The notes beneath the pieces were generated by a model that did no database searches, had not been told where the DNA came from, and worked only from the letters and a program-made list of their open reading frames with translations. 64,000 nt of DNA. Origin: an uncultured virus (IMG/VR IMGVR_UViG_3300038441_002670). Taxonomy: Duplodnaviria > Heunggongvirae > Uroviricota > Caudoviricetes. Of this stretch, positions 30,008 through 49,228 are shown piece after piece. The DNA is taken from IMG/VR virus record IMGVR_UViG_3300038441_002670; one strand, 5' to 3'. The position numbers and the translations under genes were made by a program. Numbering within the stretch: position 1 is the first letter of the stretch; each line of letters begins with the position of its first letter.

Positions 30008-30399
30008 GTACCGTCGCCATGCCAGACCTCGCAGCCCTGGTTGATCCGATTTTGGGGCTCCCATACGAGCAGTACCATTGCTGGAACCTGGTGCGCTACT
30101 TGTTTGAGCAGGGGTGGGGCATTCAGTTTGACGATGATCCGGCGCACGCCCTGGCGCAGGTTGAGGAAATCTGGTTCGTCGGTGACACCACGGACCCACT
30201 GACGCTGACCCAACCGTGGGACTGTTGGATTATGCGGACGAAAGGGATCGCCTCCAGTCATGTGGGCATTGTGCTGGATACGCAGTCTATGGTGCACACG
30301 CGCAAGGCGATTGGCGTGTGCTTGGAGCCACTGAAAGCATGGGCACCACCACGCTCGACCCGGTTGATGCAAATTGCGCGCCTGAAGCGCCTGCGCTAG
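30004..30399 (+). CDS. NlpC/P60-like tail tip protein (gpK-like)
   Basis: GLPY...CWNLV and HVGIV....MVH catalytic motifs. Confidence 0.85.
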   Translation: MSTVAMPDLAALVDPILGLPYEQYHCWNLVRYLFEQGWGIQFDDDPAHALAQVEEIWFVGDTTDPLTLTQPWDCWIMRTKGIASSHVGIVLDTQSMVHTRKAIGVCLEPLKAWAPPRSTRLMQIARLKRLR

Positions 30400-33300: not shown

Positions 33301-35651
33301 ATTATCCGGGCACGGTGCGCAATTTGCGCCTTAAAGGCCAACCGGTGGGGGCGACGATCTGGGAAGGCCGTGATGTGCATGTGGAGTGGGACCGCGTCGC
33401 CGACAGTCCGCTCTTTAGCGAGACGTTTTTTGTCCAAGAGTATATCGTGCAGGTGTGGGCGCCCGGCCAGGTCTATCTGCTGCGCAGTTTCAGTGTGCCG
33501 CTTCAGCCCGTGGGCCAGTCCGCCCAGTTTACCTATACGCGGGCGCAAAATGAAGAGGATCAGATTCATGCGGGCTTTGCCGGGGCGCGGCGCGACCTGC
33601 AAATTATGGTGTGGGCCCGCACCAATACCGGGGCAGAGTCGCTGGTGCCTGCCATTATCGTGGTGACGAATCCGCCCCCGGACATGAGTGTCATTGATCT
33701 CGACATTACGCCCCTCGCCACGAGTGTGGCGATCAAGTGGAATCAATGGCGGGAGCCGCGCGACTTCGAGCGCTACGAGCTCTACCTTGATGTGGTCGAT
33801 CCACCCATCGCCATTTATCAAAGCGTCAGTGCGCTCACCGATACGGCGGGCATTCAGGGGCTGACTCCTGGCGTTACGTACTATACCTATGTGCTCCCTT
33901 ATGATACCTTCGGACCTGGCATCCCCACGTTTACTGAGTCGTTTGTCCCGTTTGGCTTCGACCTGACCTTACTGGAGAAAGACCCGCCAGGCGTGCCAAC
34001 CGGCTTGACGCTGACGACGGGGACGGACATCAGCCAGGACGGGACGATTGTGCCATGGGTGCAGGCCCAGTGGAACCACAACCCGGAAGCCGACTTGCGC
34101 GGCTATCAACTCTCGTTTCGTATTGAGCCCAGCAACGGCGGAGCGCCCACGGTTGTGCATGCCGCCGCTGGGGATACCCGCTACCGCATGAACGTGCCAG
34201 GGGCGCTCACCATTTTCTGTAAAATTGCCGCTGAAGACCGCTTGAGTAACATCAGTGCCTATAGCGCGGAGGTCCAGATTACCAGTGGCCGGGATACGGT
34301 GGCACCCGGGCCATGTAGCAATTTGACGATTATTGGCTCGACACAAAAAGTCCACCTGCTTTGGACCCCGTCGATCAATGCCCCGGATTATGCCTATGCG
34401 GAAGTCTTTGCCTCCGCCACCAACAATCTCGCCAATGGGGGCATCGTCGGGCAAGGCCAGTTCAGCTATGAGCATGCCGGATTCACGGCCAATCAGACCG
34501 TGTATTTCTGGGTACGAGCGGTGGACACCTCGGGCAATAAGAGCACCTTTTTTCCGGCCTCGCCGACCGCCGGGGTCCCCGGCACGGCAGGGCAACTCGA
34601 TACGACCTACATCTCGTCGCTGGCCGCCGACAAGATCATTGCAGGCATCATGACAGCCCTGGTCAAAATTGGCGTGGCCGGGATGATCGACCTGGATGGC
34701 CCGAACCAGCTCATTACCGTCAAGGAGTCCCAAACCGGCAACGCGCGCGTCTACATGGGACGCCTGGGGACTCTGGGCACCGACTGGGGTTTGATGGTGC
34801 TCGACGCCGCCGGGCGCATTATGTTTGATGCCCGCGACTCGGGCGTGACCGCCTTTGGCATCAAGACGGGCGCGATTCAGGCCGGGCATATCACCACCAC
34901 GACTGCGGTCATTACCGCGGCGGCGCAAATTGCCTTTGCAATCATTACTGATGCCCATATCACCAACTTGTCGGCGAGTAAAATCCAGGCTGGCACGGTC
35001 GCGGCTCAGGTCTTTTGGGGCACGGCGGCCAACGGCGTCGGCACGCATATCGTTCTCGACGGGGTCAACCATAATATCGTCATCTATGACGATGTCGGCC
35101 AGCTCCGCACCGTCATGGGGAACTTCGGCGGCAATTACGGCTTTTATGCCTTTGCCCCCGATGGGACCCTCATGTGGGACTCGGTCAACGGCGCCACCAC
35201 GCGCGGCATTGGTAACGATACCATTACGACCGTGAAAATCGTCAACGAGACCATCACGACCGTGAAAGTGGCGGATAACGCCATTACCAATAGCGTGCAG
35301 TATGTGGATGACACGACGCTCAGTGTCACGACGAGCGAAACAGCAGCCGCGAGCCTCGTCTTTGACCTCAATACGAACGATCAAGTGCTGATGTGGGCCA
35401 TGGGCACGGGTGCCAACACCGGCACCAGCGCCCTCACTATTCGCATCCGGCTCGACTCGGTCGGCGGGGGAGAAATTGCCTACGGCCAGTATGGCGGGGC
35501 CGGGAAATCGACCGTTGCCACGCAAGCCGTCTACACCCATACGGGGGCGCCCGGCGTGCGCGCCTTTGTGTTCACCATGCACAATGGCGGCGGCAGTGAT
35601 ATCGTCGCGCTCGATCATCGCAAATTTATCGGCATTCGGAGACAAAAGTGA
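30339..35651 (+). CDS. central tail tip / host specificity protein (gpI-gpJ fusion) with Fn3 domains
   Basis: N-terminal ubiquitin-like VCINGG..GDEI, VPVVYGRHRIGG, LCEGPI, WSDNPAW, YG, Fn3 repeats (VRAVDTSGNKS); start uncertain. Confidence 0.88.
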   Translation: MGTTTLDPVDANCAPEAPALATVACLLVLSPLPGRDGRLRTRCEQFPAGDPLEAYLPEGEALARVCINGGIIAPEHYAHVIPRAGDEIWLWPAWEGVEIWLPLASIALSLLLTTASHFLFRPKPLLLPQQPQMTGETERTFSFEGIRTAIGPGGVVPVVYGRHRIGGQLLLATVDHVATVIDDGISSPGVAIVAVGHGEPSDIVFVTAPGHGFATDQTILIEGVQGKTAVNRQWTIAVVDNDTFVLKFSWGVGFDQPYLGGGTARLQNVGARSYQAVTNPPTLSLMMALCEGPIDAILTETIQINGQPLANFPGVQVYTGLGEANQPAIAEFGGARNTFSDGRELLVETPLTYTSNGILHAFTLNFTFAEGLYFLDAKGEKNSNAVTLRYRYALTGTGAWSAWSQFQVGADRTATVRIGVRREGLMLAQYDIQMEFVHVLNNDELRSRYRPSLESVTEHLPETYAYPHTVMLGLRAVATDALRGALPNITVEVRGRRVRVGTLAPVETWSDNPAWCMMDALTNTRYGRGVSDSEIDLTSFSVFAAYCAETIAGETRHTLNYVLDRETRAQQFFLETMGGARGLLLKSAGQWQARPTRPETPTCLLSWASVSNVRLTYLRDADNINVLEARFANEDQDYEQDVQTWPTIDQWPPEIHKQSLDLRGITKPSRVQRALQFELNRRRYENVQLEMDCSPEALPMQLHDLFRFAHPLPGWGVSGRIMPGSTNAILQVDEDCLIEFGLYYCVYVRHEDDTIEMRNIINIVVGSVRTLYLQTVLNQTPAPRTATWVFGRLAPDFVTDASTRTFRVTNLQRRSDTTVHVEAIIHNPAIYDEPTATPLPPITTLFNPLGPPPPLTILIATEATRVQASGASLRVVNLSWDVAELSSAYAPYAGATILRRTVLVSGTMGQAQAGAIAFGAISDPNDPNINYIQLTQVRGHVLDWDDYTVVSGATYQYRVIPVSSLGVPNNAGSREVLIHVAGPTTPGYYPGTVRNLRLKGQPVGATIWEGRDVHVEWDRVADSPLFSETFFVQEYIVQVWAPGQVYLLRSFSVPLQPVGQSAQFTYTRAQNEEDQIHAGFAGARRDLQIMVWARTNTGAESLVPAIIVVTNPPPDMSVIDLDITPLATSVAIKWNQWREPRDFERYELYLDVVDPPIAIYQSVSALTDTAGIQGLTPGVTYYTYVLPYDTFGPGIPTFTESFVPFGFDLTLLEKDPPGVPTGLTLTTGTDISQDGTIVPWVQAQWNHNPEADLRGYQLSFRIEPSNGGAPTVVHAAAGDTRYRMNVPGALTIFCKIAAEDRLSNISAYSAEVQITSGRDTVAPGPCSNLTIIGSTQKVHLLWTPSINAPDYAYAEVFASATNNLANGGIVGQGQFSYEHAGFTANQTVYFWVRAVDTSGNKSTFFPASPTAGVPGTAGQLDTTYISSLAADKIIAGIMTALVKIGVAGMIDLDGPNQLITVKESQTGNARVYMGRLGTLGTDWGLMVLDAAGRIMFDARDSGVTAFGIKTGAIQAGHITTTTAVITAAAQIAFAIITDAHITNLSASKIQAGTVAAQVFWGTAANGVGTHIVLDGVNHNIVIYDDVGQLRTVMGNFGGNYGFYAFAPDGTLMWDSVNGATTRGIGNDTITTVKIVNETITTVKVADNAITNSVQYVDDTTLSVTTSETAAASLVFDLNTNDQVLMWAMGTGANTGTSALTIRIRLDSVGGGEIAYGQYGGAGKSTVATQAVYTHTGAPGVRAFVFTMHNGGGSDIVALDHRKFIGIRRQK

Positions 35652-36076
35652 TGCTGCTGGTCCGCTACACTCTGGCGACCGGGGCCATCAGTGGCGTCTG
35701 GGAAGGCACCGACCAGGCCCTCCTGGCGCTCCAGATGGTGCCCGATGACCCCACGTATGGCTCCGTGTTTGCCGACAGCGGGACGCCCAGTGAGGTGCAA
35801 GAGCGGTGGCGCGTGGTGGATGGTGCACTGGTCGAGAAGGCCGTGCTCGTCATCACGGCAACGTCTGCGCCCTTTGCCGCCGATGGCGTGGCGGTGTGCA
35901 GCATGACGGTGGTGCCCTTTGTCGCATGTACGCTGGAACTCAACGGCACGCCCTATGCGCTCACGACGGGTGATCCTGCCATTGAACTCACGTCAGAGGT
36001 GCCCGCCGTGTTTCAGTGCGTGCTCCAGATGATGGCGGGCTATTGGGCAGCCCCTGTGACTGTGGAGGCGGTGTAG
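35648..36076 (+). CDS. hypothetical tail-associated protein
   Basis: Coupled to the J gene. Confidence 0.55.
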   Translation: MMLLVRYTLATGAISGVWEGTDQALLALQMVPDDPTYGSVFADSGTPSEVQERWRVVDGALVEKAVLVITATSAPFAADGVAVCSMTVVPFVACTLELNGTPYALTTGDPAIELTSEVPAVFQCVLQMMAGYWAAPVTVEAV

Positions 36077-36250: not shown

Positions 36251-37756
36251 TTGGCCCAACTCGGCAGCGGCAACAATTCGAGTTATCGGGACGGGATTAT
36301 TGACACCCGCCAGACGTTTCAAAATGCGCCGACGGCTGGTCCTGATTCGAATAGTCGCCTTGATTCTGAGGTAATAAATGATGGGCTAGATGCTATTATA
36401 GGTATTGAGACTATATTAGGCGCTAATCCCCAGGGCACTTTTGGCAGTCTCGCCGCGCGGCTCCAGCAGTTCCTCCCTGGTGGCGGGTCCACGCCGTTGT
36501 TCTTTGGCTTTACGAATGAAACGACGGTGGAGATTCCTGGTGTCACGCATAACCTGGGCACGGCGACGCCCCTGGTGCAGATCTGGGATGCCAACACCCC
36601 ACGCGCCGCCATTGAGCCCAGCACTGGCTCGGTCGATCAAAACACGTACAACGTCGTGCTCACGTTTGCCACGCCGCAGAGTGGGGCCGTCAGCCTGGCC
36701 GCGCCGAGTCCCCAGTATACGACGACGTTTACCAATCAAACGACCGTGACGATTCCCGGAGCGACGCACCTGCTCGGCAGTGCGGACTTGCTCGTGCGCG
36801 TGTATACCGTCTCAGGCACGCTCAATGTGTTTAGCAATGCCGCCGTGACGATCGCCGCTGGCACCTTTGATGTGGTGGTCACGTTTGCCACGGCCCAGAG
36901 TGGGTCGATCATCCTGAGTAACGCGGGACCGCGCTACGCTACCAATTTCACGAACCAGACGACGGTGAGTGTGGCCGGAGCTACCCACGGACTCCCCACC
37001 CCCGCCCTGCTCTTTCAGGTCTACAATGCGGCCAGTCCGCGGGCGGTCATTCGGCCCAACTCGCTTACGGTGGACCCGACCACGTTTGACGTGGTGATGA
37101 CGTTTGTCACGCCCCAGAGCGGGCGGCTCCTGCTGATCCAGGCCAGCGAGATTACGGGCAGCGATTTTGAAATCCGGGATGCGGGCGTGACCAATAGCTC
37201 CGCCGTGCGGGTGCTCAGCGACGACGGGTCCCTCATCCTGCAAATGGGCTCCGGGGAAGCCGTGAATGTGCTCAACAAAACGGGCACGGTCGTGCAGGCA
37301 ACGAACAACGCCGGGAATCTCACCATTACAGGCACGGCGACCAAGCCCGGCGGAGGCGCGTGGCTGAGCCCCTCTGATCGTCGGCTCAAGGAACACATCG
37401 AGCCGTTCACCGATGGCGTCGAGCAACTCCTGCACCTCATGCCCGTATGGTTTCAGTATAACGGCCTGGGCGGGGTGCCACGCGATGGCCGCTGGCACAG
37501 CGGGTTTCTTGCGCAAGACGTCGAGCCCGTCGCCCCCTACATGATCCAGCGCACACCCGGCAAGCTCCACTACCGGGATACCGAGGCCGTCGAGCTGCTC
37601 ACGTTTGACGCGGAGGCGATGGTGCCGCTGCTGGTCAACACGATCAAGGCACTCCATCAGGAACTGGCCAGTCTGCACGCGCGCGTGCTGGCTCTCGAAG
37701 CGTTCCATACCCACGTCGAGCCAGAACCATCGCCCCCAGAAGGAGAATCCGTATGA
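36251..37756 (+). CDS. tail fibre with three internal repeats and C-terminal peptidase S74 chaperone
   Basis: Three FTN.TTV..PG.TH.L repeats; SDRRLKEHI, GFLAQDVE, LVNTIKAL coiled coil. Confidence 0.88.
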   Translation: MAQLGSGNNSSYRDGIIDTRQTFQNAPTAGPDSNSRLDSEVINDGLDAIIGIETILGANPQGTFGSLAARLQQFLPGGGSTPLFFGFTNETTVEIPGVTHNLGTATPLVQIWDANTPRAAIEPSTGSVDQNTYNVVLTFATPQSGAVSLAAPSPQYTTTFTNQTTVTIPGATHLLGSADLLVRVYTVSGTLNVFSNAAVTIAAGTFDVVVTFATAQSGSIILSNAGPRYATNFTNQTTVSVAGATHGLPTPALLFQVYNAASPRAVIRPNSLTVDPTTFDVVMTFVTPQSGRLLLIQASEITGSDFEIRDAGVTNSSAVRVLSDDGSLILQMGSGEAVNVLNKTGTVVQATNNAGNLTITGTATKPGGGAWLSPSDRRLKEHIEPFTDGVEQLLHLMPVWFQYNGLGGVPRDGRWHSGFLAQDVEPVAPYMIQRTPGKLHYRDTEAVELLTFDAEAMVPLLVNTIKALHQELASLHARVLALEAFHTHVEPEPSPPEGESV

Positions 37757-38223
37757 CATGGTTGAAGGCCCTTGTCGTGCTCGTAGGGCTCTCGTTTGCC
37801 CCAACCTTTGTCCTGGCCCAGGGGCAGCTCTACAATACCAATATGACCGTCACAGGCACCATTAACGGGGGCACCACGACGGGGTCGGGCAATGCGTATG
37901 TCCTCGCCTTGGCCCCACCCATTACGGCGTATACAACCAACCAGTGCTTCACCTTCAAAGCCAATTTTACGAACACGGCGGCGGCGAGCCTCAATATCAA
38001 TGGCTTAGGAGCCAAGACGCTCAAGAAATTTGTCTCGACCGTTGTGACGGACCTCGCCCCCAACGATGTGACGAATGGGCAGATTATCAGCGTGTGCTAT
38101 GACGGCACCAACATGCAACTCGTAGGCAGCGGCGGGGTAGGCGGCGGCGGTGGTGGCGGTGTGAGTAGTTTCATCGCGTTTAGTGCGGCGGCGTACGCCA
38201 TGACGAACTTCGGAGGGCTCTAA
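37753..38223 (+). CDS. signal-peptide protein carrying a tail-fibre module
   Basis: MTWLKALVVLVGLSFAPTFVLA|Q; GNAY...TNTAAASLNINGLGAK...YDGTN. Confidence 0.75.
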   Translation: MTWLKALVVLVGLSFAPTFVLAQGQLYNTNMTVTGTINGGTTTGSGNAYVLALAPPITAYTTNQCFTFKANFTNTAAASLNINGLGAKTLKKFVSTVVTDLAPNDVTNGQIISVCYDGTNMQLVGSGGVGGGGGGGVSSFIAFSAAAYAMTNFGGL

Positions 38224-38226
38224 ACT

Positions 38227-38733
38227 ATGCAACGATGGCTGATCCTGCTCGGTCTCTTCCTGGGGAGTGTCGGGGTCGCCCTGGCGGCGGTGACCCCCGG
38301 CAGTATTGTGACACTCCAGGCACCTGCGGTGGGGATGGTGCAGTTCCTCCAGGGTACGGATAACGCGGGCACCTACAAAACACTCTTTACCGCAGGCGTC
38401 GGGGGCACGGCGAGTTCGAGCGGCTCCAAATGTAATGCCATGTGGTTGACGACCGATGATGGGACGGCCACGCATCTTGTGACGGTGCAGGTGTCGCGCG
38501 GCGGCATCCGCTATGGCGGGGTGGCGGTGGCGACGACGCTCGGGCAGGGCTTTGTGAATGGCACGCCGCCGCTGAACCTTTTCGCGCCGACCATTTGGCC
38601 TGGCTTGCCCCTGGATAGCGACGGCAATCCCTATCTGCAACTCATGGCAGGCGATCTGATTCAGGCCACCTTTGCCACGGCCCTGACAGCGGCGACCCGG
38701 ATCAGTATCGTAGTGAGCTGTGGTGATTACTAA
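38227..38733 (+). CDS. signal-peptide beta-rich protein
   Basis: MQRWLILLGLFLGSVGVALA|A. Confidence 0.7.
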   Translation: MQRWLILLGLFLGSVGVALAAVTPGSIVTLQAPAVGMVQFLQGTDNAGTYKTLFTAGVGGTASSSGSKCNAMWLTTDDGTATHLVTVQVSRGGIRYGGVAVATTLGQGFVNGTPPLNLFAPTIWPGLPLDSDGNPYLQLMAGDLIQATFATALTAATRISIVVSCGDY

Positions 38734-38737
38734 CGGG

Positions 38738-38766
38738 TTGATTTGTACTATGGATTATGGTATAAT
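38738..38766 (+). promoter_or_regulatory. sigma70 promoter of the EndoVII gene
   Basis: TTGATT-N17-TATAAT with extended -10 TG. Confidence 0.8.
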
Positions 38767-38845
38767 GGCAACACTACAAACGCACTGCCCTGTCGCACGA
38801 ACGACAGGGACAGCACTAACCATACGCTCTGGAATGGAGAGACGC

Positions 38846-39376
38846 ATGGCTACCTCTCAGCTTACCCTATTTCCTAAGCCACTTCTACGCGAGAAACGTT
38901 GTTGTACTTGCAAGGTATGGTTGCCGCTAGAGAAATTTGGCCGCAACAAAGCACGACCAGACGGACTTCAGGACTACTGCGCAATCTGTCACAGGGCCGC
39001 AGTGAAGCGCTACTATGACAAGACTCCAGGGGCGAAAGAGCGTGCCAAAGCCGTTTCGGCTGCGTGGAATAAAGCGAATTACGAACGAAGAAAGCGTATA
39101 GAGCTTCGGAGCAAACTTAAAGAAAAAGGTTTGACGATGGAGCAGTACGACGAAGCCATAATTCGTCAAGAAGGTGGTTGTGGGATTTGTGGCGAAAAGG
39201 AAAATCGCCATACACTTCAGACACGTCTTGTTATTGACCATGATCACGTCACCGGGAAATTTCGGGGTTTGCTCTGCCATAACTGCAACGTGTCTCTAGG
39301 TCTTATGCGTGACAATATTGAGCTACTAGAGCGAGCCATTGCCTATCTCAAAGTATCGCAGGAGAGTCCCTTATGA
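38846..39376 (+). CDS. endonuclease VII-like HNH protein
   Basis: CGIC, LVIDHDHVTGKFRGLLCHNCN.LG. Confidence 0.92.
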   Translation: MATSQLTLFPKPLLREKRCCTCKVWLPLEKFGRNKARPDGLQDYCAICHRAAVKRYYDKTPGAKERAKAVSAAWNKANYERRKRIELRSKLKEKGLTMEQYDEAIIRQEGGCGICGEKENRHTLQTRLVIDHDHVTGKFRGLLCHNCNVSLGLMRDNIELLERAIAYLKVSQESPL

Positions 39377-40320
39377 TGAGACGCCTCCTCTTCCCCCTAC
39401 TGTTCCTGGTCGCTTTGTGCGTCCCGGCCCTGGCCCAGCAGCCCGATACGCGGCCCCATCCGAGCAATCTGCGCTTCAACAAGCTGCGCATTGGGAGCCT
39501 CGTCAACTGCGGGACCAATACCTTCGTGACCGGCTTCGATCCGCGCACGAGTGCGCCGGTGTGTGTCGCCCTGTCGCTCAGTATGCTCACCGATGCCAGT
39601 AATGTCGTGACGACCACGGGCGTGCAAAAGGTGTCGGGGAAGCAGAACGTGCCCCGCGTGGTGCCACTGACTATTGTTGGGACGACCCCCGCGACCGTGA
39701 CCCTCAACTGTGATACGACGGACATTGGTACCCTCGATGCGATTGCCTCGGATATCACCATTGGGGTGCCGACGTGCAGCGGCACAAATCCAGAAGGGGA
39801 ACAAGAAATTGAGTACCGTTTCCGCTCCTCAACCCCACGTATTATCACATGGAACGCAGTCTTTTGCGAAGAAAATAATGTACCCCTCCTCGCCCAGACC
39901 ACGGGCGACGGCGTGAAATTTAACCGCATCAAGTTCCGCCGGAACAGCCTGAGTGCATGCTGGGGGGTCGTGGCAAACCCGAGTGCACTGGCCCGGGGGA
40001 TCACGACGGTGCCAAGCAGTGCGACCTATGCTTGTGACCCCAGGATAGCAGAGAGTTGTGAGATGCAGAACACCCTGACGGCTGGTACGGGGGTCACCCT
40101 GGCGATTGCGGCAGGCACGTATGCCAACGGGACGAAGGTGCTTTTCCGCATCCGGTGTACTGGAACACAAGCGCTCACCCTGCCTACAGGCACGTTTTTG
40201 GGCTCTGCCACGGTGCCGCTGACCGGCATGACGTGTACGTCGAATAGCTACTGGACCCAGCTCGGGTTTATCTTTTCAGGAATCGATAACCGATGGCAAA
40301 TCCATGCGTTCGCAAACTAA
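39373..40320 (+). CDS. signal-peptide, Cys-rich fibre-like protein
   Basis: MMRRLLFPLLFLVALCVPALA|Q; two similar beta modules. Confidence 0.72.
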   Translation: MMRRLLFPLLFLVALCVPALAQQPDTRPHPSNLRFNKLRIGSLVNCGTNTFVTGFDPRTSAPVCVALSLSMLTDASNVVTTTGVQKVSGKQNVPRVVPLTIVGTTPATVTLNCDTTDIGTLDAIASDITIGVPTCSGTNPEGEQEIEYRFRSSTPRIITWNAVFCEENNVPLLAQTTGDGVKFNRIKFRRNSLSACWGVVANPSALARGITTVPSSATYACDPRIAESCEMQNTLTAGTGVTLAIAAGTYANGTKVLFRIRCTGTQALTLPTGTFLGSATVPLTGMTCTSNSYWTQLGFIFSGIDNRWQIHAFAN

Positions 40321-40347
40321 TTTTTCTCTCTCTCTATAAAGGGTAGT

Positions 40348-40860
40348 ATGGTGAGACAACGCCTGGCAGTCGCTCTGCTTCTCTGTGTCCTGGTGGCCAT
40401 GCCAGCGCTGAGTCTGGCCGCCACCTTTGTATGGCTCCGTGGCGCCGCCCAGGTCTGGCTGACCAACAGCACCAACGTTGCTAGTGGCAGCAGTATCCTC
40501 TCGGCGGCCATTACGCTGACCAGTGCCAACTATACGCGGGCTGATTGTGAGCTGAACGTGCCGGCATGGAGTACGACCGTCACAGCGAATACCGCGGTAG
40601 TGGTCTGGCTGATACGCTCAGTGGATGCGACGCCAAATTACGAGGACGGGGCAGCCGGGACGGACCCTGCCCGGACACCCGACATGGTCTTTCCGCTGCG
40701 GGCCGTGAATCTACCGCAACGCATCATTATGCCGAACATTGAACTCCCACGTGGCTTGTTCAAAGCCCTCGTCAAAAATGATGGCACCGGCGCCAGCATG
40801 AACGGTGCGACAACTGCGTGGACATTAACGTGTACACCTTATATTTTACAATCGCTCTAA
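40348..40860 (+). CDS. signal-peptide beta-rich protein
   Basis: MVRQRLAVALLLCVLVAMPALSLA|A; NYED motif. Confidence 0.7.
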   Translation: MVRQRLAVALLLCVLVAMPALSLAATFVWLRGAAQVWLTNSTNVASGSSILSAAITLTSANYTRADCELNVPAWSTTVTANTAVVVWLIRSVDATPNYEDGAAGTDPARTPDMVFPLRAVNLPQRIIMPNIELPRGLFKALVKNDGTGASMNGATTAWTLTCTPYILQSL

Positions 40861-41690
40861 GCCTCCTGCTGCTGGTGACGCCCGCCGAGAGCCAGCGCGC
40901 CGTGGACCGCACGGCCCCCTTCGCGCAGGGCCTCGTCGCCTGGTGGCGCGTCCTGCCCGGCGTCAGTGGGGCGCCGCGGTGGTATGACCTGCTCGGGCGT
41001 TTCAACGCGACACTGACGAACATGGCGGCGGCGGGCACGAGCGGCTGGGGGGCGACGACGCGAGCCGGGGGCCAGGGCGAGGTGCGCTTTGACGGTACCA
41101 ACGATTACGCCGTCACGCCATCGAGTGCCCTGCTCTATCCGCCCGCCTTTACGCTGACCCTCTGGCTGCGCCGGAGCGCCACCGGGAGCGATTATCAACG
41201 GGTGCTGTCGCATCCTGACGGCGGTTCACGGCACCTCTACGTGCGCGCCGCAGGCACGATCAGTACCAGCGTCCTGGTCTCGGCAGGTGGCGGGACGAGT
41301 ATCGGCCATGACAACGAGGGGGGACCGATTACCGTGGGCACCTGGTACTTCCTCTCCATGTCGTATGACAACGTCGTGGGCTTTGCCTTCGCCCGCAACT
41401 GTGTGCAGCAATTCGCCGATGCCCAGAACGGGACGGCCTTCGGTCTCACGAACGTCGTGCTGTTTGGGGCCAATAGTGACGGGTCGGTGGACCGGCTCAC
41501 GGGTGCCATGGATGATGTGCGGCTCTACAACCGGGTGCTCCCGACGCGGGACCTCTGTGCGCTCATGCGTGCCTCTAGCCAGGGCGATCCGCGCCTGCTG
41601 CCCCCCACGCTCCTCACCGGGCTGCTGGCACCGGGCGGGCCAGCCGGGGCGCTGGGGCAATTCTTTCCCTTTTTTACCCAACCACAATGA
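40818..41690 (+). CDS. signal-peptide LamG domain protein
   Basis: Hydrophobic N-terminus; GLVAWW, FDGTNDY, FTLTLW, GAMDDVRLYNRVL. Confidence 0.82.
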   Translation: MDINVYTLYFTIALSLLLLVTPAESQRAVDRTAPFAQGLVAWWRVLPGVSGAPRWYDLLGRFNATLTNMAAAGTSGWGATTRAGGQGEVRFDGTNDYAVTPSSALLYPPAFTLTLWLRRSATGSDYQRVLSHPDGGSRHLYVRAAGTISTSVLVSAGGGTSIGHDNEGGPITVGTWYFLSMSYDNVVGFAFARNCVQQFADAQNGTAFGLTNVVLFGANSDGSVDRLTGAMDDVRLYNRVLPTRDLCALMRASSQGDPRLLPPTLLTGLLAPGGPAGALGQFFPFFTQPQ

Positions 41691-41698
41691 GGTGTGTG

Positions 41699-44176
41699 AT
41701 GATCCGCCGTCTACTCCCGCTCGCCCTACTCGTGCTGCTCCTTCCGTGTCTCGCCCAGGCGGTGACGCGCTATGTCTCGACCAGTGGCAATGATAGCTTT
41801 AGTTGCGATGACTCGCGCGATATTGCCAAGCCCAAACGCAACCTCCGTGGCATGAGTGGTGCCCTGCGGTGTATAGGCCCGGGTGATACCCTGTATATCC
41901 GCGCAGGGACCTACATAGATCATATCCTCTCCGTCGCCGGAGGTGATCCCGCTGAGACGTTTATCCTCCCGAGTGGTGGGGGAAGTTGGGCGACCGCGAC
42001 CACCATTGCTGGGTATCCTGGCGATGCGAGACCAGTGATTCAGGCGGTGAATGATGCCCACAAGGGGACCATTAAACTCACGGATAATGTCCCCCATCAG
42101 TGGATACTCATTAATCATATCGACTTTAATGGCGGTGGATATGCAGAGGCGCAATTCCAAGGGAATAACGACCAGGGCATCCTCAACAATGCGAGCCAGC
42201 CCTTTCGTGGGATCTCACACCTCCGTGTCACGGATGCTATTTTTCGCAATAGTTTCCATACCTGTGTTGGTGGCGGCGGGAGTGATGTCCAATTCATCAA
42301 CAATGAAATCCATAGTTGTCCCACAGAGGCCCCAGGAGAAGGATATGCGTTTTATTTCCCCTGTATTGGGTGCCTCTGGGAAAATAATGTTATCCATGAC
42401 ACGGCTGGCTACGGCATTCATGAGTATGAAACAAGCATGCCTGCGGGTTTGGATAATAACATTATCCGTAACAATCGCTTTTATAATATTGGCCTGAGTG
42501 GTAACACCTCTTTTGCGATTATCATGGCAAAGGGAAGTAATAACCAAGCCTATAATAACCTCATTTATAATGGTCAGTCCGGGATTCAAGTCGGGTATGA
42601 ATGTACAAGTTGTAAATATTACAATAACACCATTGTGAATAACACCGCGACTGGGATGGAGATGCGGCAGGACCATGGTGGTGATGGTTTTATCCGCAAT
42701 AATATTGTCTACAACAACCATCCGAACTTTTATGAAGGCAATAACTTTAGTAGTGGCGCTTATGTGCGGCAGAATAATCTCTGTAATAGCACAGATAGCC
42801 ACTGCGACCACAGCGGCAATCCCGACTTTGTCGATGCGGGCACGGGTAATCTGCGGCTCAACGCGGGCAGCGCGGCCCGCAACCAGGGGATCAGCGTGTC
42901 GGTGTCCACGGCTCCGGGTGCATCGCTGACCCCACTCAATACGTCCTTTTATGGCGTCGCGCGCCCACAAGGGAGTACATGGGACATTGGTGCCGCCGAG
43001 TATGAGGAAGGCGGGGGCACCCCCGTCTCTGGCAACCCCATCTATGTGGCCGCGACTGGGGGCACGCCGACCACCGACTGCACCACGGCGGAGAACCAGG
43101 CGACGCCCATCCGCACGATTACCCAGGGGCTCACCTGCATGACGGTGCCGGGCAAGACCATGTTTATCAAGGCTGGCACCTATAGTGAAGCGATCGACAC
43201 GGGGGCACAGCCCATTGTCGGCGGGAATGGGCCGTCGTATAGTAACGCCACCACGATTGAGGGCTTTGGCAGCGATGTCGTCACCATTCAACTCCCGGTC
43301 GGCGGCTTCTTGCCGCTCTACTTGAACAATGGCGCGAATGACAAATACATGGTGTTTCGTAAACTGATCTTTGATGCGGCTGGGCGTGCGTTCAGCAATG
43401 GCATCGGCTTCGGCGCGGGCGGGCATCATCTCCGCTTTGAGCAAGTCGAGGTCAAAAATAGCGTCTTTGAGGCCGTCTACGTCTTCAACGCCAGTAATAT
43501 CGAGTTGGTGCAAGCGAACATCCACGACGCCGGGGCGGTGGCGGTGCAGCTCGACGGCACGCTTGACGGCTTTCTGTGTCAGCACTGCGCCCTCTACGAT
43601 TCCGCTGGCGGCCTCAACTGGAATAATGCCGGGGCAAAAGGGAACATTGTCATCCGCGAGAGTATCCTGCAAAACCTCTCGGCGGACGCCCTCGACGCGG
43701 GCACGAGTACCGGGGCGATCGTGCAAAACTCCATCATCACGGACAATACCGCAGGCGGCGTGCGGGTGCGCGCCGGAGCCAGCGGCATGAAGGTCTACAA
43801 CACTACCATTGCCAATAATGGCGGCGTGGGCCTCCAGTGTGATACGCTGGCGAGCGGGGTGGAGTTCATCAATGATATCAGTTGGAACAATACGGGCGGG
43901 AATCTGGTCGTCAACTGCGGGATCACCCCGACGACCACCACCACGACGGACCCGCTGTTTGCGGTCGGCACCTATCAACTGGCGGATGGCTCCACGGCCA
44001 TTGATTCAGGCACCAATATCCCCAGCCTGACGGTCGATTACGCGGGGAACGCACGCCAGCAGGGCCAGCAGGACCGAGGGGCCTATGAACGCCTCGGCGT
44101 CACACCCCCGGTCGTCCCTGGCCCCGACGTCACCACACGCCCGCCGGCATTGTTCCAGGCGGAGATGTTTTTCTGA
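41699..44176 (+). CDS. signal-peptide protein with two right-handed beta-helix (pectate-lyase-like) modules
   Basis: MIRRLLPLALLVLLLPCLAQA|V; YVSTSGND, PGDTLYIRAGTY, NN-ladder repeats, DIGAAEY. Confidence 0.85.
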   Translation: MIRRLLPLALLVLLLPCLAQAVTRYVSTSGNDSFSCDDSRDIAKPKRNLRGMSGALRCIGPGDTLYIRAGTYIDHILSVAGGDPAETFILPSGGGSWATATTIAGYPGDARPVIQAVNDAHKGTIKLTDNVPHQWILINHIDFNGGGYAEAQFQGNNDQGILNNASQPFRGISHLRVTDAIFRNSFHTCVGGGGSDVQFINNEIHSCPTEAPGEGYAFYFPCIGCLWENNVIHDTAGYGIHEYETSMPAGLDNNIIRNNRFYNIGLSGNTSFAIIMAKGSNNQAYNNLIYNGQSGIQVGYECTSCKYYNNTIVNNTATGMEMRQDHGGDGFIRNNIVYNNHPNFYEGNNFSSGAYVRQNNLCNSTDSHCDHSGNPDFVDAGTGNLRLNAGSAARNQGISVSVSTAPGASLTPLNTSFYGVARPQGSTWDIGAAEYEEGGGTPVSGNPIYVAATGGTPTTDCTTAENQATPIRTITQGLTCMTVPGKTMFIKAGTYSEAIDTGAQPIVGGNGPSYSNATTIEGFGSDVVTIQLPVGGFLPLYLNNGANDKYMVFRKLIFDAAGRAFSNGIGFGAGGHHLRFEQVEVKNSVFEAVYVFNASNIELVQANIHDAGAVAVQLDGTLDGFLCQHCALYDSAGGLNWNNAGAKGNIVIRESILQNLSADALDAGTSTGAIVQNSIITDNTAGGVRVRAGASGMKVYNTTIANNGGVGLQCDTLASGVEFINDISWNNTGGNLVVNCGITPTTTTTTDPLFAVGTYQLADGSTAIDSGTNIPSLTVDYAGNARQQGQQDRGAYERLGVTPPVVPGPDVTTRPPALFQAEMFF

Positions 44177-44187
44177 GGAGAGTCTCT

Positions 44188-46380
44188 ATGCACTACTGGT
44201 TCCTCATTGTCCTGTTCCTTGCCTCCTCTGTGCAGGCCGCCACGCGCTATGTGAGTCCGCAGGGGAGCAATGGCCGCAGTTGTGAGGCGTCCACCAACCC
44301 TGACCAGCCCAAGCAGAGTCTGAACGGTGCCCAGGGCGCCATCGCCTGTATGCGCTCAGGCGATACGCTCCTCCTTCGGGGAGGCACCTACCGCGAGGCC
44401 CTCGTCATTCCCACCGGCGGGCTGCCCAATGGCGGTGGGAGTTGGGACAGAGCGACCACCATCGCCGGGGTTGCGGGGGAACGCGCCATCCTGCGCCCAC
44501 CCTCCGGCACCTTTACCTCAACCACGCTCAGTCTGGGCACCGGGGGCGGCTTTGCCTGGATGATTTTTGAAAACTTGGAGATGGACGGCACGGATATGGG
44601 GAGTTGTTCTGGGTGTGGGCAAAACGTCATGCTGGGCGGCGACTCGCACCACATTCGGATCAAAGATTGTGATATCCACCACGCCCCAAGCCATAACCTT
44701 TTTGGCGGCGGTGCATTCCACGAATTCCTCGGCAACCGGGTCCACGATGCCAGAGGCTATGGCTGGTACTTTTCCGGCAACCACGCCGTCTTTGATGGCA
44801 ATGACATCTTCTTCATGGGCGGCTATGGCCTCCACATCTATAACACGGGGGCCAACGACGTCAGCGACAATGTGATTAGCAATAACCGGGTGCATGACAA
44901 CGGTTACGGCAAATACCAGGACCCCCCACGCGGCGGCAATGGCATGCTGGTCTCGCATGGCAGTAATAACGTGGTCGTCAACAACCTCATTTACAACAAC
45001 AATCAGGGGGTAGAGATCGACCATCATTGCACCGACTGTCGCTACTACCACAACACCATCGTGGGCAATACCGGGGCCGGGGTCGCGCTCGGCGTGCAGT
45101 ATCCCCAGAGCTTGCCGGGCCTCATCTTCGAGAATAACCTGGTGGCCGACAACGGCCAGAACTTCTACGATCCGAACCAGGTCCCCGGCACCTACAGCCA
45201 TACCCTCTGCTCTCGCGCTGGCGTGCACTGTGACCTCGTGGGGAATCCGGCCTTTGTGGCGGCGGCGGTGGGCAATTTTCGCCTCCTGGCGATCAGTGAC
45301 GCCCGCAACGCGGGCAAGACAATCGACAGTGTGCGCTCCTCCTTTTGGAATGTGCCACGGTCCAACCGTGCGTATGACATCGGGGCCGATGAATTCGAGG
45401 AAGAGGACGAGACCCCCGGGCCTGTCACGGGCAACGCCATCTATGTGCGGACGCCCGCCAGGGGAGGCAACGACGCCAACGATTGTGCGGCGGCTGAGAA
45501 CCCCGCCACGGCCAAGGCGACTATAACTAGTGCGCTGGGCTGTATGACCGTCGCAGGCAAAGTCCTCCGGATCGAGGCCGGGACGTACGTGGAGGAAATC
45601 GATACCGCCAAGACGCCCATTACCGGCGGCACGGCAGAGGCGATGACGCGCATCGAGGGCTATGGGACAGGGGCCGCCATTCTCCAGTCGCCAGCGGGGG
45701 GCAATGCCACGCTCTGGCTGCACGCTGCCACCGATCGCTATATCCACTTCAAGCGGCTCATCATCGACGGGGCGAACCGCACGTTTAACACGCTCGCCCT
45801 CTTCGGCACGACCCAGCATGTACGTTTTGAGCAGGTGGAGGTCAAAAACGTGGCGCACGCCAATGAGGGCGTCTACGTGCTCGGCGCCGACCATGTGGAA
45901 CTCATCGACGTGTTTGTCCACGACACCGGCTCCCATGCTCTGCGGCTGGAAGGGGATATTGACACCTTTGTGTGCGAGCGCTGTCACCTGTATAACGCCA
46001 AAACGACCGGCTTGTCGATTGACGCCACCGGCACCAAGAAGGCAATCAGTTTCCGCAACAGCGAGGTACGGAACAACGGCGGGGATGCGGTGGACTTGGG
46101 CAGTGGCGCGGGGACGCAGATCGATCATTTATTGGCTCAAGGCAACGGCAGTATGGGTGTGCGTATCCGCACGGGTGCCCGTGGTGTGAGCCTGAACACC
46201 AGCACCATCTATAGCAACGTCGGCAACGGCGTGCAGTGTGACGCGGGGGCCAGCGACGTCGTGCTGCGCGAGAACATCATCTATGGCAATGCCGGGGGTG
46301 GAGCCAACAACATTGTCAACAACTGTGGTGCGACGGTCGAGGCCACGGTCGAGCGGTCCCCGTCGGCGCGCATGGAGTAG
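44188..46380 (+). CDS. signal-peptide protein with two beta-helix modules, paralog of the upstream gene
   Basis: MHYWFLIVLFLASSVQA|A; GDTLLLRGGTY, DIGADEF. Confidence 0.85.
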   Translation: MHYWFLIVLFLASSVQAATRYVSPQGSNGRSCEASTNPDQPKQSLNGAQGAIACMRSGDTLLLRGGTYREALVIPTGGLPNGGGSWDRATTIAGVAGERAILRPPSGTFTSTTLSLGTGGGFAWMIFENLEMDGTDMGSCSGCGQNVMLGGDSHHIRIKDCDIHHAPSHNLFGGGAFHEFLGNRVHDARGYGWYFSGNHAVFDGNDIFFMGGYGLHIYNTGANDVSDNVISNNRVHDNGYGKYQDPPRGGNGMLVSHGSNNVVVNNLIYNNNQGVEIDHHCTDCRYYHNTIVGNTGAGVALGVQYPQSLPGLIFENNLVADNGQNFYDPNQVPGTYSHTLCSRAGVHCDLVGNPAFVAAAVGNFRLLAISDARNAGKTIDSVRSSFWNVPRSNRAYDIGADEFEEEDETPGPVTGNAIYVRTPARGGNDANDCAAAENPATAKATITSALGCMTVAGKVLRIEAGTYVEEIDTAKTPITGGTAEAMTRIEGYGTGAAILQSPAGGNATLWLHAATDRYIHFKRLIIDGANRTFNTLALFGTTQHVRFEQVEVKNVAHANEGVYVLGADHVELIDVFVHDTGSHALRLEGDIDTFVCERCHLYNAKTTGLSIDATGTKKAISFRNSEVRNNGGDAVDLGSGAGTQIDHLLAQGNGSMGVRIRTGARGVSLNTSTIYSNVGNGVQCDAGASDVVLRENIIYGNAGGGANNIVNNCGATVEATVERSPSARME

Positions 46381-46395
46381 GACAGAGGAGCGGGT

Positions 46396-46899
46396 GTGGC
46401 TGACGAGGTGCAAGTACAGAGTCAGGGTCCGGGTGGCAACGGGTTCAGCGTGGACCTCAAGCAGCGCTCCTTGGGCATTACGGGCCCTATCGTCATCCCC
46501 GTAGTGACGCTCCTCCTCGTGGGCGCCCTCGGGTGGATACGTTCGCGGGATCTCAAGGACAGCCTAGAGGCCACGAACACCCACCTGCAACAGCTCTATG
46601 ACCGGCAGGATCGCTTCCGCCAGGAGCTCCAAACGTTGTTCTTGACGCAAGTGGATCAACTGCGCGCCCTGCACCTGGCCCACAAGGAACTGCTCGCCCA
46701 GCAGCACACAGAGACGCTGGAGCGGCTGCGCGAGAACCGCGACGTCACTGGGGCCAAACTCGATGAGCAAAACAAGCTCCTGGGTGAGCAGACGAAGGAA
46801 GTGCGCCAGCACCACGCCATCATCATCTGGAACCAGCGCCACGATCCGGGCGAGCAGCTCATCCTCGACCTGCCCATTCCCCCCGAGCGCCCACGCTAG
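46396..46899 (+). CDS. single-TM coiled-coil protein (holin/spanin-like)
   Basis: One TM segment followed by a coiled coil. Confidence 0.55.
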   Translation: MADEVQVQSQGPGGNGFSVDLKQRSLGITGPIVIPVVTLLLVGALGWIRSRDLKDSLEATNTHLQQLYDRQDRFRQELQTLFLTQVDQLRALHLAHKELLAQQHTETLERLRENRDVTGAKLDEQNKLLGEQTKEVRQHHAIIIWNQRHDPGEQLILDLPIPPERPR

Positions 46900-46919
46900 G
46901 GCACGCAAGGCGAGAATCT

Positions 46920-48092: not shown

Positions 48093-48659
48093 TCACACGC
48101 ATGGGCACGTCGCCTGCACGAGTGCCTCCTGAAAGACGACCGCATAGCCCGCGATCTGCTCCGCACAGTCCAACCCGTTCACGACCTGGCGGGCGTGCGT
48201 GTAGTCGCACTGCGCCGCGTCAATGTACTCACCAAGACCCAGGCCCGTAAAGTCGCCGTCGCACATGCCCTCATAGAGGATACGCGCCGCCGGTCCCGGT
48301 TGCAGGGCCAGGTCGGGAGTCGTGACGAGGGGCAACTGGAGCTTCGCGCCCTGATAGGCATAGTTGTTTTTCCAGGTCAATTGAACATAGCCGCGACCAA
48401 AATAGGACTCTCCGGTCTCTGGGTCAGGCACGCCGTAGGGATACCCGGCACCATGACCGTACTCGGCAATGGGCTGCATGGTGCGGGCCGTCTCATGCAG
48501 CACCGTGGCCAGGATATACGCCACCTGACGCAGATCGAGCGGCGGCTCGTGCAACTCCGCATAATCCAGGAGATATTCACAGCCCTCGACCTGACTCTGC
48601 GTGAGGGTGCCGCCAAAAAGCGGGGTACGGATCACGTCATAGAAACGCTGGCGGTACAT
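48093..48659 (-). CDS. glycoside hydrolase family 19 endolysin
   Basis: AYILATVLHET, YFGRGYVQLTWKNNY, ARQVVNG.D. Confidence 0.88.
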   Translation of the reverse strand: MYRQRFYDVIRTPLFGGTLTQSQVEGCEYLLDYAELHEPPLDLRQVAYILATVLHETARTMQPIAEYGHGAGYPYGVPDPETGESYFGRGYVQLTWKNNYAYQGAKLQLPLVTTPDLALQPGPAARILYEGMCDGDFTGLGLGEYIDAAQCDYTHARQVVNGLDCAEQIAGYAVVFQEALVQATCPCV

Positions 48660-49228
48660 GGGGCTCCTTTCTCCTCCTCCGTTGCTATGGCTCACCCATT
48701 CGGCATGGCATAACGGCAGGCTGGGCACCAGAGCTGCTGCTGGGTGTCGTCCCAGACCATAGGCTGTAAACAGTAGTAGCACATGAGGGTCACTGCGTCG
48801 CTCTCGTCCACGGCGGCAGGAGGCAGGGTCATGGTGGGGCTCCTCTTTCTATGGGATGATGCGCTTAGTAGTCATGGTCTGCCCTATCCGTGCCAGAGGT
48901 GCCCATCCAGCCAATCCTCTGCCGGTGTTGCGCACGGAGTAGCCTGTCGCCCTCGACGTAGGCTTCCGCTTCGTCACCCACGGACCACGGGATACTGTAT
49001 CCACAGCGGCCACATTTCCAGATATTTGCGTCACCATCCTCACGAATCTGTACCGTATAGGTATGCGGTTGTGGTGGGTGTCGGTCATGGCATGGTGTCA
49101 GCATAGCGTTCCTCTCTGATGTTCTCGACATTGATTGTTGCACTCAATCGCCGTTTATAGTCCGTCCCCACGCAGCAAGAAGATTCCTGCAGCGAGAAAC
49201 GCCTTATAAATCAAGTAGATAGCCTCGC

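Follow-up and report, generated by a model that had tools for sequence, protein, structure and literature searches.

Predicted Sec leaders on a conserved module of fibre, lectin and beta-helix genes in an uncultured tailed phage

A block of leader-bearing genes behind the tail fibre

A 64,000-nucleotide stretch of DNA from an uncultured soil virus of the Caudoviricetes (IMG/VR record IMGVR_UViG_3300038441_002670), referred to here as the window, has a GC content of about 61%, has its proteins entered in the protein database under a 76.6-kb contig, and carries on its plus strand a block of seven genes, A, B, D, E, F, G, and H (37753 to 46380), whose products are predicted to begin with leaders for the general secretory (Sec) pathway and signal peptidase I (SPase I). 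The block follows a leaderless tail fibre gene with an S74 chaperone domain, and an initial annotation of the window had proposed that the seven products are exported and fold with disulfides outside the cytoplasm.

Gene A (37753..38223) encodes a leader of residues 1 to 22 (...FVLA|QGQ, with the bar at the predicted cut), one tail-fibre repeat domain, and a Gly run. Gene B (38227..38733) joins a leader of residues 1 to 20 (...VALA|AVT) to a 148-amino-acid (aa) domain with two Cys residues, for which no family was found in Pfam, PHROGs, or NCBIfam, and gene D (39373..40320) joins a leader of residues 1 to 21 (...PALA|QQP) to a Cys-rich fibre-tip protein. The product of gene E (40348..40860) consists of a leader of residues 1 to 24 (...LSLA|ATF) and a 146-aa jelly-roll beta-sandwich with two Cys residues that resembles carbohydrate-binding modules (CBMs). 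Gene F (40830..41690, within an open reading frame [ORF] that opens at 40818) encodes a leader of about 21 aa, a LamG/concanavalin-type lectin domain with two Cys residues (PF13385, Laminin_G_3; E value, 3.1e-19; 70.1 bits against a cut-off of 27.6; residues 92 to 243), and an aromatic C-terminal tail. Gene G (41687..44176) encodes a leader of residues 1 to 25 (...LAQA|VTR), two right-handed beta-helix regions with 16 Cys residues, a choice-of-anchor Q domain (NF041518; 3.8e-15), a Pro-rich linker, and a tail ending in ...EMFF, and gene H (44188..46380) encodes a leader of residues 1 to 17 (...VQA|ATR) and a beta-helix/NosD-type protein with 15 Cys residues. Both matched PF13229 (Beta_helix; cut-off, 25.9 bits), G with 4.9e-20 and 72.2 bits and H with 2.8e-29 and 102.2 bits, and H also matched PF05048 (NosD; 6.6e-12); a glycanase-type function may be proposed for the two proteins from this fold family. 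Pfam returned all of the domains called in the initial annotation, namely, Peptidase_S74 on the leaderless fibre, Endonuclease_7 on a gene lying between B and D, Laminin_G_3 on F, and Beta_helix/NosD on G and H.

The LamG and beta-helix proteins were seen to share a C-terminal Pro-rich linker and a short aromatic tail (41600 to 41690 and 44090 to 44176 in the window, and also in homologs from L002 and L008 to L012, the L numbers denoting related loci). The tails read ...GQFFPFFTQPQ in F and ...FQAEMFF in G, and ...ESFF, ...GWFF, ...SMYF, and ...LPFFR in relatives; H has no tail. This element may be a shared docking or processing peptide.

Leaders were called with a rule-based Sec/SPase I scan that required an uncharged hydrophobic core of 8 to 18 residues, agreement with the -3/-1 rule, and cleavage at positions 15 to 35, and the scan was applied to a greedy set of 76 ORFs of the window (the 7 block genes and 69 others). 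All seven block genes passed, with scores from 10.6 to 14.0 (A, 12.6; B, 13.0; D, 14.0; E, 13.5; F, 10.6; G, 13.7; H, 11.7), and the remaining 69 ORFs included a single one with 10.5 or more, a membrane ORF of 73 aa at 61703 (10.5). The Sec-type signal peptides that had been proposed for the seven non-endonuclease genes were thus recovered, and the scan reproduced the proposed cleavage sites of A, B, D, G, and H. The leaders are 17 to 25 aa long, with Lys or Arg residues in the n-regions of A, B, D, E, and G and none in those of F and H. Short, Leu-rich leaders of this length fit the Sec/SPase I substrates of diderm bacteria.

The assigned starts include the leaders. Shine-Dalgarno motifs lie 7 to 10 nucleotides (nt) before the leader-including starts of A (AAGGAG, 7 nt), B (GGAGG), D (AGGAG), and H (GAGGAG), the start of G is coupled to F by an ATGA overlap, and E has no in-frame start past codon 17 within 70 codons, all of which argues against true starts downstream of the hydrophobic segments. 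For F, the leader was borne out and remained, as first described, the least canonical of the set, with no positive n-region and the lowest score; its start is more likely the GTG at 40830 (MYTLYF...) than the opening of the ORF at 40818 that had been used at first, since its relatives begin with MYALYL or MYKLYL.

Two other kinds of export signal were considered. Signals for twin-arginine translocation (Tat) have an S/T-R-R-x-F-L-K motif, a long n-region, and a weakly hydrophobic core and typically span at least 30 aa. Such a signal was rejected as a general rule: an RR pair occurs only in D (MMRRLLF) and G (MIRRLLP), whose cores are Leu rich and whose leaders are 21 to 25 aa long, and, judged by eye against the Tat consensus, it is missing in the paralog H and in most orthologs. 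A lipoprotein (signal peptidase II) signal was also rejected, with a lipobox in none of the seven leaders and with the lone LGAC of the B homolog in L002 kept neither in L005 nor in the window. No outer-membrane or lipoprotein sorting signal was seen in the module proteins of the window and its relatives.

Conservation, leader switching, and cysteine pairs

Conservation of the leaders was counted over the window, the L002 group, L003, L005, L008 to L012, L027, and L029, which span 25 to 95% identity and 50 to 62% GC, with a scan score of at least 10 as the threshold. In the ORF tables of these 11 distinct loci, 70 of 72 module ORFs had a leader, so that the signal peptides are kept in related phages. 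Both exceptions came from L010; one, at 7582 to 9444, has a longer, anchor-like N-terminus that the scan leaves unscored, and the other is an ORF of 145 aa. Leaders were never found on the upstream genes for the central fibre J, a 142-aa protein, and the S74 fibre, the sole false flag being an internal hydrophobic segment (I-J region) of a 5'-truncated J ORF in L012. Maps made by tblastn showed that the gene order, J, 142-aa protein, S74 fibre, A, (B), D, (a small helical protein), E, LamG, beta-helix protein or proteins, and membrane proteins, is conserved at 25 to 95% identity, including loci of 50% and 57% GC. The same leader-bearing module of D-type tip, small helical protein, E, LamG, and beta-helix genes was seen in L010 (GC, 0.50), L011 (0.57), L029 (0.56), and the window (0.61), and its occurrence in phages of clearly different base composition suggests that it spreads across host lineages.

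Leaders are less alike between loci than the mature parts that follow them, with identities of 55% (leader) and 99% (mature) for A in L003, 21% and 77% for E in L005, and 38% and 64% for D in L005. Only 15 relatives of D, all metagenomic, were found among 5.8 billion proteins; 13 homologs were aligned, two fragments of 218 to 219 aa being left out, and a leader ending in small-x-small before Q is retained by each of the 12 whose N-terminus is intact. A and D are fused into one leader-bearing fibre of 490 to 773 aa in L008, L009, and L012, which indicates that A and D of the window are halves of one fibre, and L008 has an additional leader-bearing fibre of 1377 aa with collagen repeats. Homologs of B, also leader-bearing, were found only in L002, L003, L005, L028, and L034; a relation of B to the E family was tried with hhalign and rejected. 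Canonical leaders stand on the F homologs of L008, L009, L010, L011, L012, L027, and L029, and G is fused with an H-type half in relatives, giving single proteins of 892 to 1571 aa. A leader was present in 19 of the 20 H homologs that were read (P0035 is leaderless); close relatives of H, with 77 to 87% identity, lie on contigs of up to 134 kb, and longer forms add a domain with a VLYE-GNE motif, which we take to be glycoside-hydrolase-like.

Leaderless relatives were most informative for E. A profile search gave an E family of 81 proteins, 65 of which passed the scan, while 9 more had obvious leaders and 7 were leaderless. Six of these seven begin at the residue aligned to position 23 or 24 of E in the window, which is the predicted cut. 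The scan itself had placed the cleavage of E two residues earlier than the initial annotation, but the starts of the leaderless homologs back the SLA|A site of the latter. A scan of viral contigs seeded with the leaderless forms returned 19 loci, in which E was 37 to 66% identical to the leaderless query. Leaderless E was directly followed by a leaderless Laminin_G_3 protein in six distinct loci (L018 to L020, L021, L022, L023, L024, and L036), and their frames are closed by stop codons only a few codons ahead of the starts. The mature N-terminus is shared, reading MAAVVEKFLLGS... in the leaderless forms versus ...HA|AIVTKFLLGS... in the leader-bearing ones. The leaderless pair follows a tape-measure gene and a homing endonuclease in L019. 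Its direct neighbour in L021 is a protein of 1578 aa whose end is tail-assembly-like, and a sheath-type gene is close by. The small helical upstream protein, for which no known family was found, is leaderless too in L024 (hhalign, 97.3%, aligned from just past the leader). A 149-aa upstream ORF of L022 was tried as a further member of this small-protein family and proved unrelated.

E and LamG were both leader-bearing in 14 loci and both leaderless in 6, with no mixed pair (L035, which is partial, was left out), and these phylogenetically related loci do not amount to 20 independent trials. Both states span wide sequence and GC ranges. The leader state thus appears to be all-or-none per module, and the leaders are probably discrete add-ons, since the leaderless E homologs begin at the cut and their frames are closed upstream.

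Cysteine content followed the leaders. The mature proteins contain 2 (A), 2 (B), 10 (D), 2 (E), 2 (F), 16 (G), and 15 (H) Cys residues, and Cys density is 1.96% in the mature block proteins versus 0.75% in the 27 leaderless virion-module proteins of the window (Fisher P = 7.5e-7). Within the D family, the pair 113/135 is lost together in one member, the pair 165/196 is present together in 6 and absent together in 7, and Cys residues 152 and 176 are both gained in two; the mature Cys count is even in 12 of 13 members, the odd one being an N-terminal fragment. The Cys pair of F is likewise together present in 3 and together absent in 9 aligned homologs. Counts were used for E, as aligning its two subfamilies gave no clean Cys columns: exactly two mature Cys residues occur in 62 of the 65 scan-passing members, and the seven leaderless members have 0, 2, 2, 0, 1, 0, and 2.

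The A domain allowed a broader comparison. An exhaustive search returned 13,199 representative proteins at E values of 1e-3 or less, mostly leaderless fibres, and the best 150 relatives were mostly canonical fibres, which makes A one copy of a mainstream tail-fibre repeat domain. Among these best 150, 34 passed the leader scan, about 7 more had obvious leaders, and the rest had classical leaderless fibre N-termini. The Cys65/Cys115 pair was present in 22 of 48 relatives with a leader-type or hydrophobic N-terminus versus 1 of 102 without (P = 4e-12). Several false leaders are among the 48 of this loosely defined class, and they only weaken the contrast. Counted by domain copies, the pair was present in 25 of 90 leader-type copies versus 1 of 271 leaderless ones. 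Disulfide-type pairs travel with the leader, as would be expected if leader-bearing versions fold in an oxidizing compartment.

It is therefore very probable, as judged from sequence comparison, that the leaders are real, conserved, discrete add-ons that are tied to disulfide-type cysteines. Folding of the block proteins with disulfides outside the cytoplasm, as first put forward, is likewise strongly supported by the conserved but drifting predicted leaders, the homologs that start at the cut, the paired cysteines, and the leader-tied Cys pair of the fibre domain. The opposing view, that these N-termini are not cleaved export signals and represent either wrong starts or uncleaved tethers that hold the proteins at the inner membrane until assembly, is very improbable. 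It could draw on the in-frame ATG or GTG codons that lie 20 to 55 codons downstream in A, B, D, G, and H, but the Shine-Dalgarno motifs belong to the starts that include the leaders, and in E no other start is available. The leaders were called by our own rules together with comparative evidence, F and H have no positively charged n-region, and the L010 homolog mentioned above has an anchor-like N-terminus; against this, about 70 orthologous ORFs retain frame, start, core, and small-x-small site although their residues drift, leaderless homologs begin at the predicted cut, and the paired cysteines that track the leader are not explained by a tether with its protein on the cytoplasmic face. Caveats to the export reading are the RR pair in D and G, which leaves room for Tat export of some members, the odd Cys count of H, and the relatedness of the loci, by which the cross-locus counts are not independent events.

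Predicted folds and genomic setting

A monomer model of D had pLDDT values of 80 to 92 over residues 91 to 314, and its comparison with BFVD gave 178 matches at E values of 1e-3 or less, led by Caudovirales collagen-repeat, tail fibre, and minor tail proteins. Only 8 of 48,161 PDB representatives reached a Z score of 5 or more. These were 6o38 (8.8), which is titled "chaperone-substrate complex" and which we take to be a phage tail-fibre/chaperone pair, an Acinetobacter phage tailspike (8.0), TSP4 of CBA120 (7.4 and 7.0), a Klebsiella phage baseplate chain (7.1), a Pseudomonas phage capsid spike (7.0), StcE (5.7), and a chain of cyanophage Pam1 (5.1). Sequence and model together suggest that A and D may form a split fibre, with A as a proximal shaft repeat and D as the distal tip.

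The monomer model of E (pLDDT, 91.9; pTM, 0.81) shows a leader helix and then a nine-strand sandwich. Its nearest folds were PNGase F domains, CBM36, and CBM6, with Z scores of 8.3 to 9.3, and lambda J domains scored 7.0 to 7.2; because scores in this range can reflect a common arrangement, E is called CBM-like and no more. Foldseek found no match of the E model to the PDB at E values of 1e-3 or less, and neither the H sequence nor the D profile matched the PDB. In a language-model search of the ESM Atlas, the neighbours of D and E were viral.

The window holds a complete siphovirus-type virion module on the plus strand, as indicated by Pfam and PHROG matches to terminase, portal (DUF4055), MuF-like protein, scaffold, major head protein, adaptors, tail terminator, major tail protein, tape measure, NlpC/P60 tail protein, and an 1811-aa J-type central fibre. 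The last of these, a central tail fibre or host-specificity protein of the lambda J type (30216..35651, plus strand; phrog_31, 6.3e-80; PF13550), has no leader, and J homologs of 44 to 83% identity adjoin the module upstream in L002, L003, L008, L009, L012, L027, L028, and L034. Residues 145 to 213 of the J ORF also match phrog_32 (tail assembly, lambda I type), and the J match begins near residue 321, which points to a fusion of I and J or to a wrongly set start. The gene between J and the S74 fibre (35648..36076, plus strand) encodes the leaderless 142-aa protein, which has no Pfam or PHROG family and has homologs at the same position in L002, L003, L008, L009, L012, and L027. The S74 fibre itself (36251..37756, plus strand; 501 aa; PF13884, 4.9e-12; phrog_1980) ends in an S74 intramolecular chaperone domain, has neither a leader nor a single Cys residue, and overlaps the start of A by 4 nt with its stop. 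Overlaps of 4 nt also join the endonuclease gene to D and F to G, and the block genes otherwise overlap or abut. A scan for terminator-like sites gave no convincing terminator within the block (37753 to 46380), the first such sites on the plus strand past it being at 47738 and 47820.

The gene between B and D (38720..39376, plus strand) encodes an endonuclease VII-type homing endonuclease (PF02945, 8.8e-21; phrog_2633, 2e-36); it does not belong to the exported set and is missing at that site in L002, L003, and L005. A second gene of this type was noted at 56441 to 57211 on the minus strand (PF02945, 1.6e-20), and homing endonucleases occur elsewhere in the modules of relatives, as an HNH-like gene on the minus strand of L002 (11498 to 12136) and a NUMOD3 gene in L019.

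Downstream of H, at the end of the operon that holds the block, are two paralogous single-pass membrane proteins with coiled-coil tails (46396 to 46899 and 46920 to 47360) and two small two-helix membrane proteins (47366 to 47542 and 47577 to 47744), all on the plus strand and recognized from ORFs and sequences. The coiled-coil tails of the first pair are long and end in LPLDL-like motifs, and the small two-helix proteins are paralogs of about 56 aa with ends reading GYFP(L/W)R. Homologs lie 3' of the beta-helix gene in L002, L008, and L029, with both pairs kept in L002. None of the four matched a family in Pfam or PHROGs; they probably have lysis functions and may be of holin or spanin type, and no lipoprotein o-spanin was seen near 46396 to 47744. 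A GH19-type endolysin gene follows on the minus strand (48093..48782; phrog_181, 3.8e-28; PF00182, 23.1 bits, below the cut-off of 25.5).

Near the end of the window, at 63044 to 63658 on the plus strand, is a gene for a membrane-anchored, TraF-like S26 signal peptidase (PF10502, 2.4e-12; TIGR02771, 4.7e-20, below the model cut-off), with its Ser (HSLPYGLY), Lys-box (LLKPIAGVPGD), and SLDGRYFG-box motifs present. Homologs were absent from 50,697 phage records and were found in 73 plasmid records at 29 to 41% identity, annotated as S26 signal peptidase or TraF and mostly from Alphaproteobacteria and Vibrio; there was also no match in the 25-kb record of L002, the only relative's record searched, and none in the viral-contig scan. 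A phage-borne signal peptidase in the same window as at least seven leader-bearing late genes is suggestive of a link to the block.

A cluster at 16.8 to 21.1 kb, which the initial annotation had set beside the block as a comparable group of LamG and beta-type genes without leaders, is indeed leaderless, but neither Pfam nor PHROGs gave a LamG or beta-helix match for it, and a link between it and the block was rejected on that ground. Adjacent genes at 76 to 2605 on the plus strand encode QueC (PF06508, 4e-61), a radical-SAM/4Fe-4S protein, and GTP cyclohydrolase I (PF01227, 6e-67), presumably a 7-deazaguanine (queuosine-precursor) pathway of the type used by phages for DNA modification. At least half of the sampled words of the block (37700 to 46400) were contained in 10 soil-metagenome DNA runs, with no RNA runs listed; all 10 date from 2019 and may be from one campaign. 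No cultured relative emerged when A, D, G, and H were compared by tblastn with the 50,697 phage records, among which the best terminase match had 39% identity.

This setting bears on the view that the block is a "moron" island taken from a host, encoding ordinary secreted proteins, placed by chance between the tail fibre and lysis genes, expressed for the benefit of the lysogen, and unconnected to morphogenesis. Lambda keeps exported nonvirion genes, lom and bor, in and after its tail-fibre region, the choice-of-anchor Q domain of G is typical of bacterial surface proteins, and GC falls to 0.548 at 42 to 44 kb, within G, against about 0.61. The order of the genes and their place directly behind J and the S74 fibre, both conserved at 25 to 95% identity between loci, the overlap or abutment with tail genes where no internal terminator stands out, and the viral nature of the nearest relatives of D and E in language-model and fold searches all point the other way, and no integrase was seen in the window. 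No NCBI genome was the source of any D, E, or H family member, except for one leaderless E homolog. An alignment of S74 fibres found nothing in 185,579 species genomes, and an alignment of leader-bearing fibres found only four loci there, all leaderless or distant, the best match being a prophage fibre without a leader in a Pirellulales metagenome-assembled genome. The homologs of the block thus lie in phage tail loci rather than among ordinary host secreted proteins, distant relatives of G and H being the exception, and a moron origin of the whole is highly unlikely.

Export, assembly, and meaning

It is plausible, and held by us with middling confidence, that the block encodes a set of virion appendages that are exported, fold oxidatively in the periplasm, and join the particle only at lysis. 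A virion appendage set with a moved folding compartment is suggested by the leaderless E-LamG pairs within tail operons and by the fibre parts A and D. Late in infection, the block would be translated from the same operon as the tail genes, and its products would pass through the host Sec translocon, be cleaved by SPase I, and enter the periplasm, where they would fold with disulfide bonds and accumulate during the late phase. The module would serve accessory host recognition, with A and D as a fibre, the CBM-like E and the LamG lectin F as a pair, and G and H as glycan-cutting-type proteins. When holin lesions and lysis merge the compartments, these parts would dock to the particle built in the cytoplasm with its leaderless J and S74 fibre. 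We infer the location in the periplasm rather than beyond, the diderm host, the attachment at lysis, and the binding and cutting of glycans. More tentatively, the particles of such phages could be finished from two compartments, with whole modules toggling between cytoplasmic and exported states by gain or loss of leaders and with disulfide pairs following; the S26 peptidase and the F and G tails may belong to the same arrangement.

Several considerations pull against virion attachment, and they lend weight to the main rival outcome, possible though doubtful, in which the proteins are exported but never enter the particle and form a free or envelope-associated, disulfide-stabilized, glycan-targeting set that is released at lysis. 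Such a set might strip capsule or slime near the burst cell and from neighbouring cells, or destroy or mask the receptor on the dying cell and on debris so that progeny escape trapping, with A and D as a targeting scaffold or receptor blocker. The leaderless J and S74 fibre are already candidates for receptor binding and would serve adsorption, so that infectivity does not need the block, and mature A has no known virion anchor domain in Pfam or PHROGs, only about 18 conserved residues preceding its first fibre repeat, and no recognizable anchor is seen on the mature fibres. The periplasm as the site presupposes a diderm host, for which the short leaders and the lambda-like tail are the only basis. 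Distant H relatives of 410 to 566 aa resemble ordinary bacterial secreted beta-helix proteins, as do distant relatives of G, and G and H could have arrived with their leaders attached. The Pro-rich linkers and aromatic tails of F and of G and its fused forms could also join these proteins in a tail-independent complex.

The leaderless E-LamG pairs in tail operons, however, stand against such a nonvirion set, since a free secreted role is impossible for them before lysis, and A and D are mainstream fibre parts. If free, a tip that binds the receptor would be a competitor of the phage's own particles, the lack of any outer-membrane or lipoprotein sorting signal seen implies confinement to the periplasm before lysis, and a search of 10 proteins against the PADLOC defence and exclusion families gave no match. 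The cell-surface structure that the initial annotation had offered as one outcome likewise gained no specific support, as no such sorting signal was seen. Two published systems nonetheless show what a nonvirion role might look like. WceF of Pantoea stewartii is an exported trimeric beta-helix protein of tailspike fold that trims the exopolysaccharide (EPS) of its own bacterium (PMC7949094); it thus resembles G and H as a tailspike-type enzyme that works after export, a likeness of fold type alone, but it is bacterial, is encoded in an EPS synthesis operon, and has a 28-aa Tat signal. Free depolymerase that diffuses from plaques is textbook knowledge (PMC6116005). The same article describes Sec-exported and signal-arrest-release (SAR) endolysins, such as Lys44 of Oenococcus phage fOg44, as late proteins of tailed phages that use host Sec export before lysis (PMC6116005). 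Unlike the block, these are single genes for lysis enzymes and not of fibre, lectin, or tailspike type. To our knowledge, they have not been suggested to take part in host recognition.

Other phage-encoded exported proteins that stay off the virion are T5 Llp, lambda Lom and Bor, and Cor-type lipoproteins, of which the Llp and Cor types act from the envelope to block the receptor; all of them are lipoproteins or small outer-membrane proteins, unlike the fibre and glycanase modules described here. XepA of the phage-like element PBSX (PDB 6i56, titled "exported"), whose gene presumably lies next to the PBSX lysis genes, has a sandwich that matches the E model (Z, 8.1; root mean square deviation, 3.6; 107 residues aligned), but its host is monoderm, CBM36, CBM6, and PNGase F score higher, and the Z score may reflect a common arrangement. 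The coat proteins of inoviruses go through Sec and become part of the virion (PMC4823517), but inoviruses are assembled at the membrane and have no tail.

The closest precedent for attachment to the particle is Cellulophaga phage phi18:3 (NC_021794.1), a cultured podovirus of the Pachyviridae, whose record lists gp085 to gp087 as structural or tail proteins of the virion and gives "experimental MS/MS proteomics analysis" as the basis. These proteins have leader-like N-termini that score 10.0, 12.2, and 12.1, with ends such as ...SGVSA|Q and ...GLNA|Q, and the portal and terminase of the same phage score nothing. Phi18:3 differs from the present phage in being a podovirus of a Bacteroidota host with three such proteins that have few Cys residues (0, 1, and 3), and A, D, G, and H had no tblastn match in the phage collection that holds it. 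By analogy, this only verified cultured-phage precedent for leader-bearing virion proteins suggests that attachment is at least possible. The leaderless E-LamG modules form the other point of comparison; they share the order of E family and Laminin_G_3 and the mature N-terminus with the block, and they differ in having no leaders, in lying inside tail operons, and in largely lacking the canonical Cys pair.

Every virion part of a tailed phage is, in the textbook view, assembled in the cytoplasm. No published report of Sec leaders on tailed-phage fibres or of a periplasmic branch of virion assembly was found in the portion of the full-text literature that could be searched, which leaves most subscription journals uncovered. 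What is new here is a lambda-J-type siphovirus clade with a whole post-fibre module predicted to be exported, together with the all-or-none switching of E-LamG pairs, leaderless homologs with their starts at the cut, and a statistical association of the fibre-domain Cys pair with the leader. Roughly a quarter of the 150 best fibre-domain relatives are leader-bearing, which suggests that the phenomenon is not rare. Three regularities can be tested: leaders are all-or-none per module, leaderless homologs begin at the cut, and the Cys pairs occur only with leaders. Whichever reading holds, practice is affected: annotation pipelines and phage engineers relying on cytoplasmic expression of such fibres or depolymerases would end up with misfolded products, and anyone predicting host range from "tail fibre" genes would have to take the export route into account. 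If the proteins stay off the particle, they would represent an undescribed class of phage-exported glycan-targeting complexes; if they join it, tailed phages would have a second, extracytoplasmic branch of virion assembly, which would explain the disulfide-hardened fibres and enzymes of soil phages.

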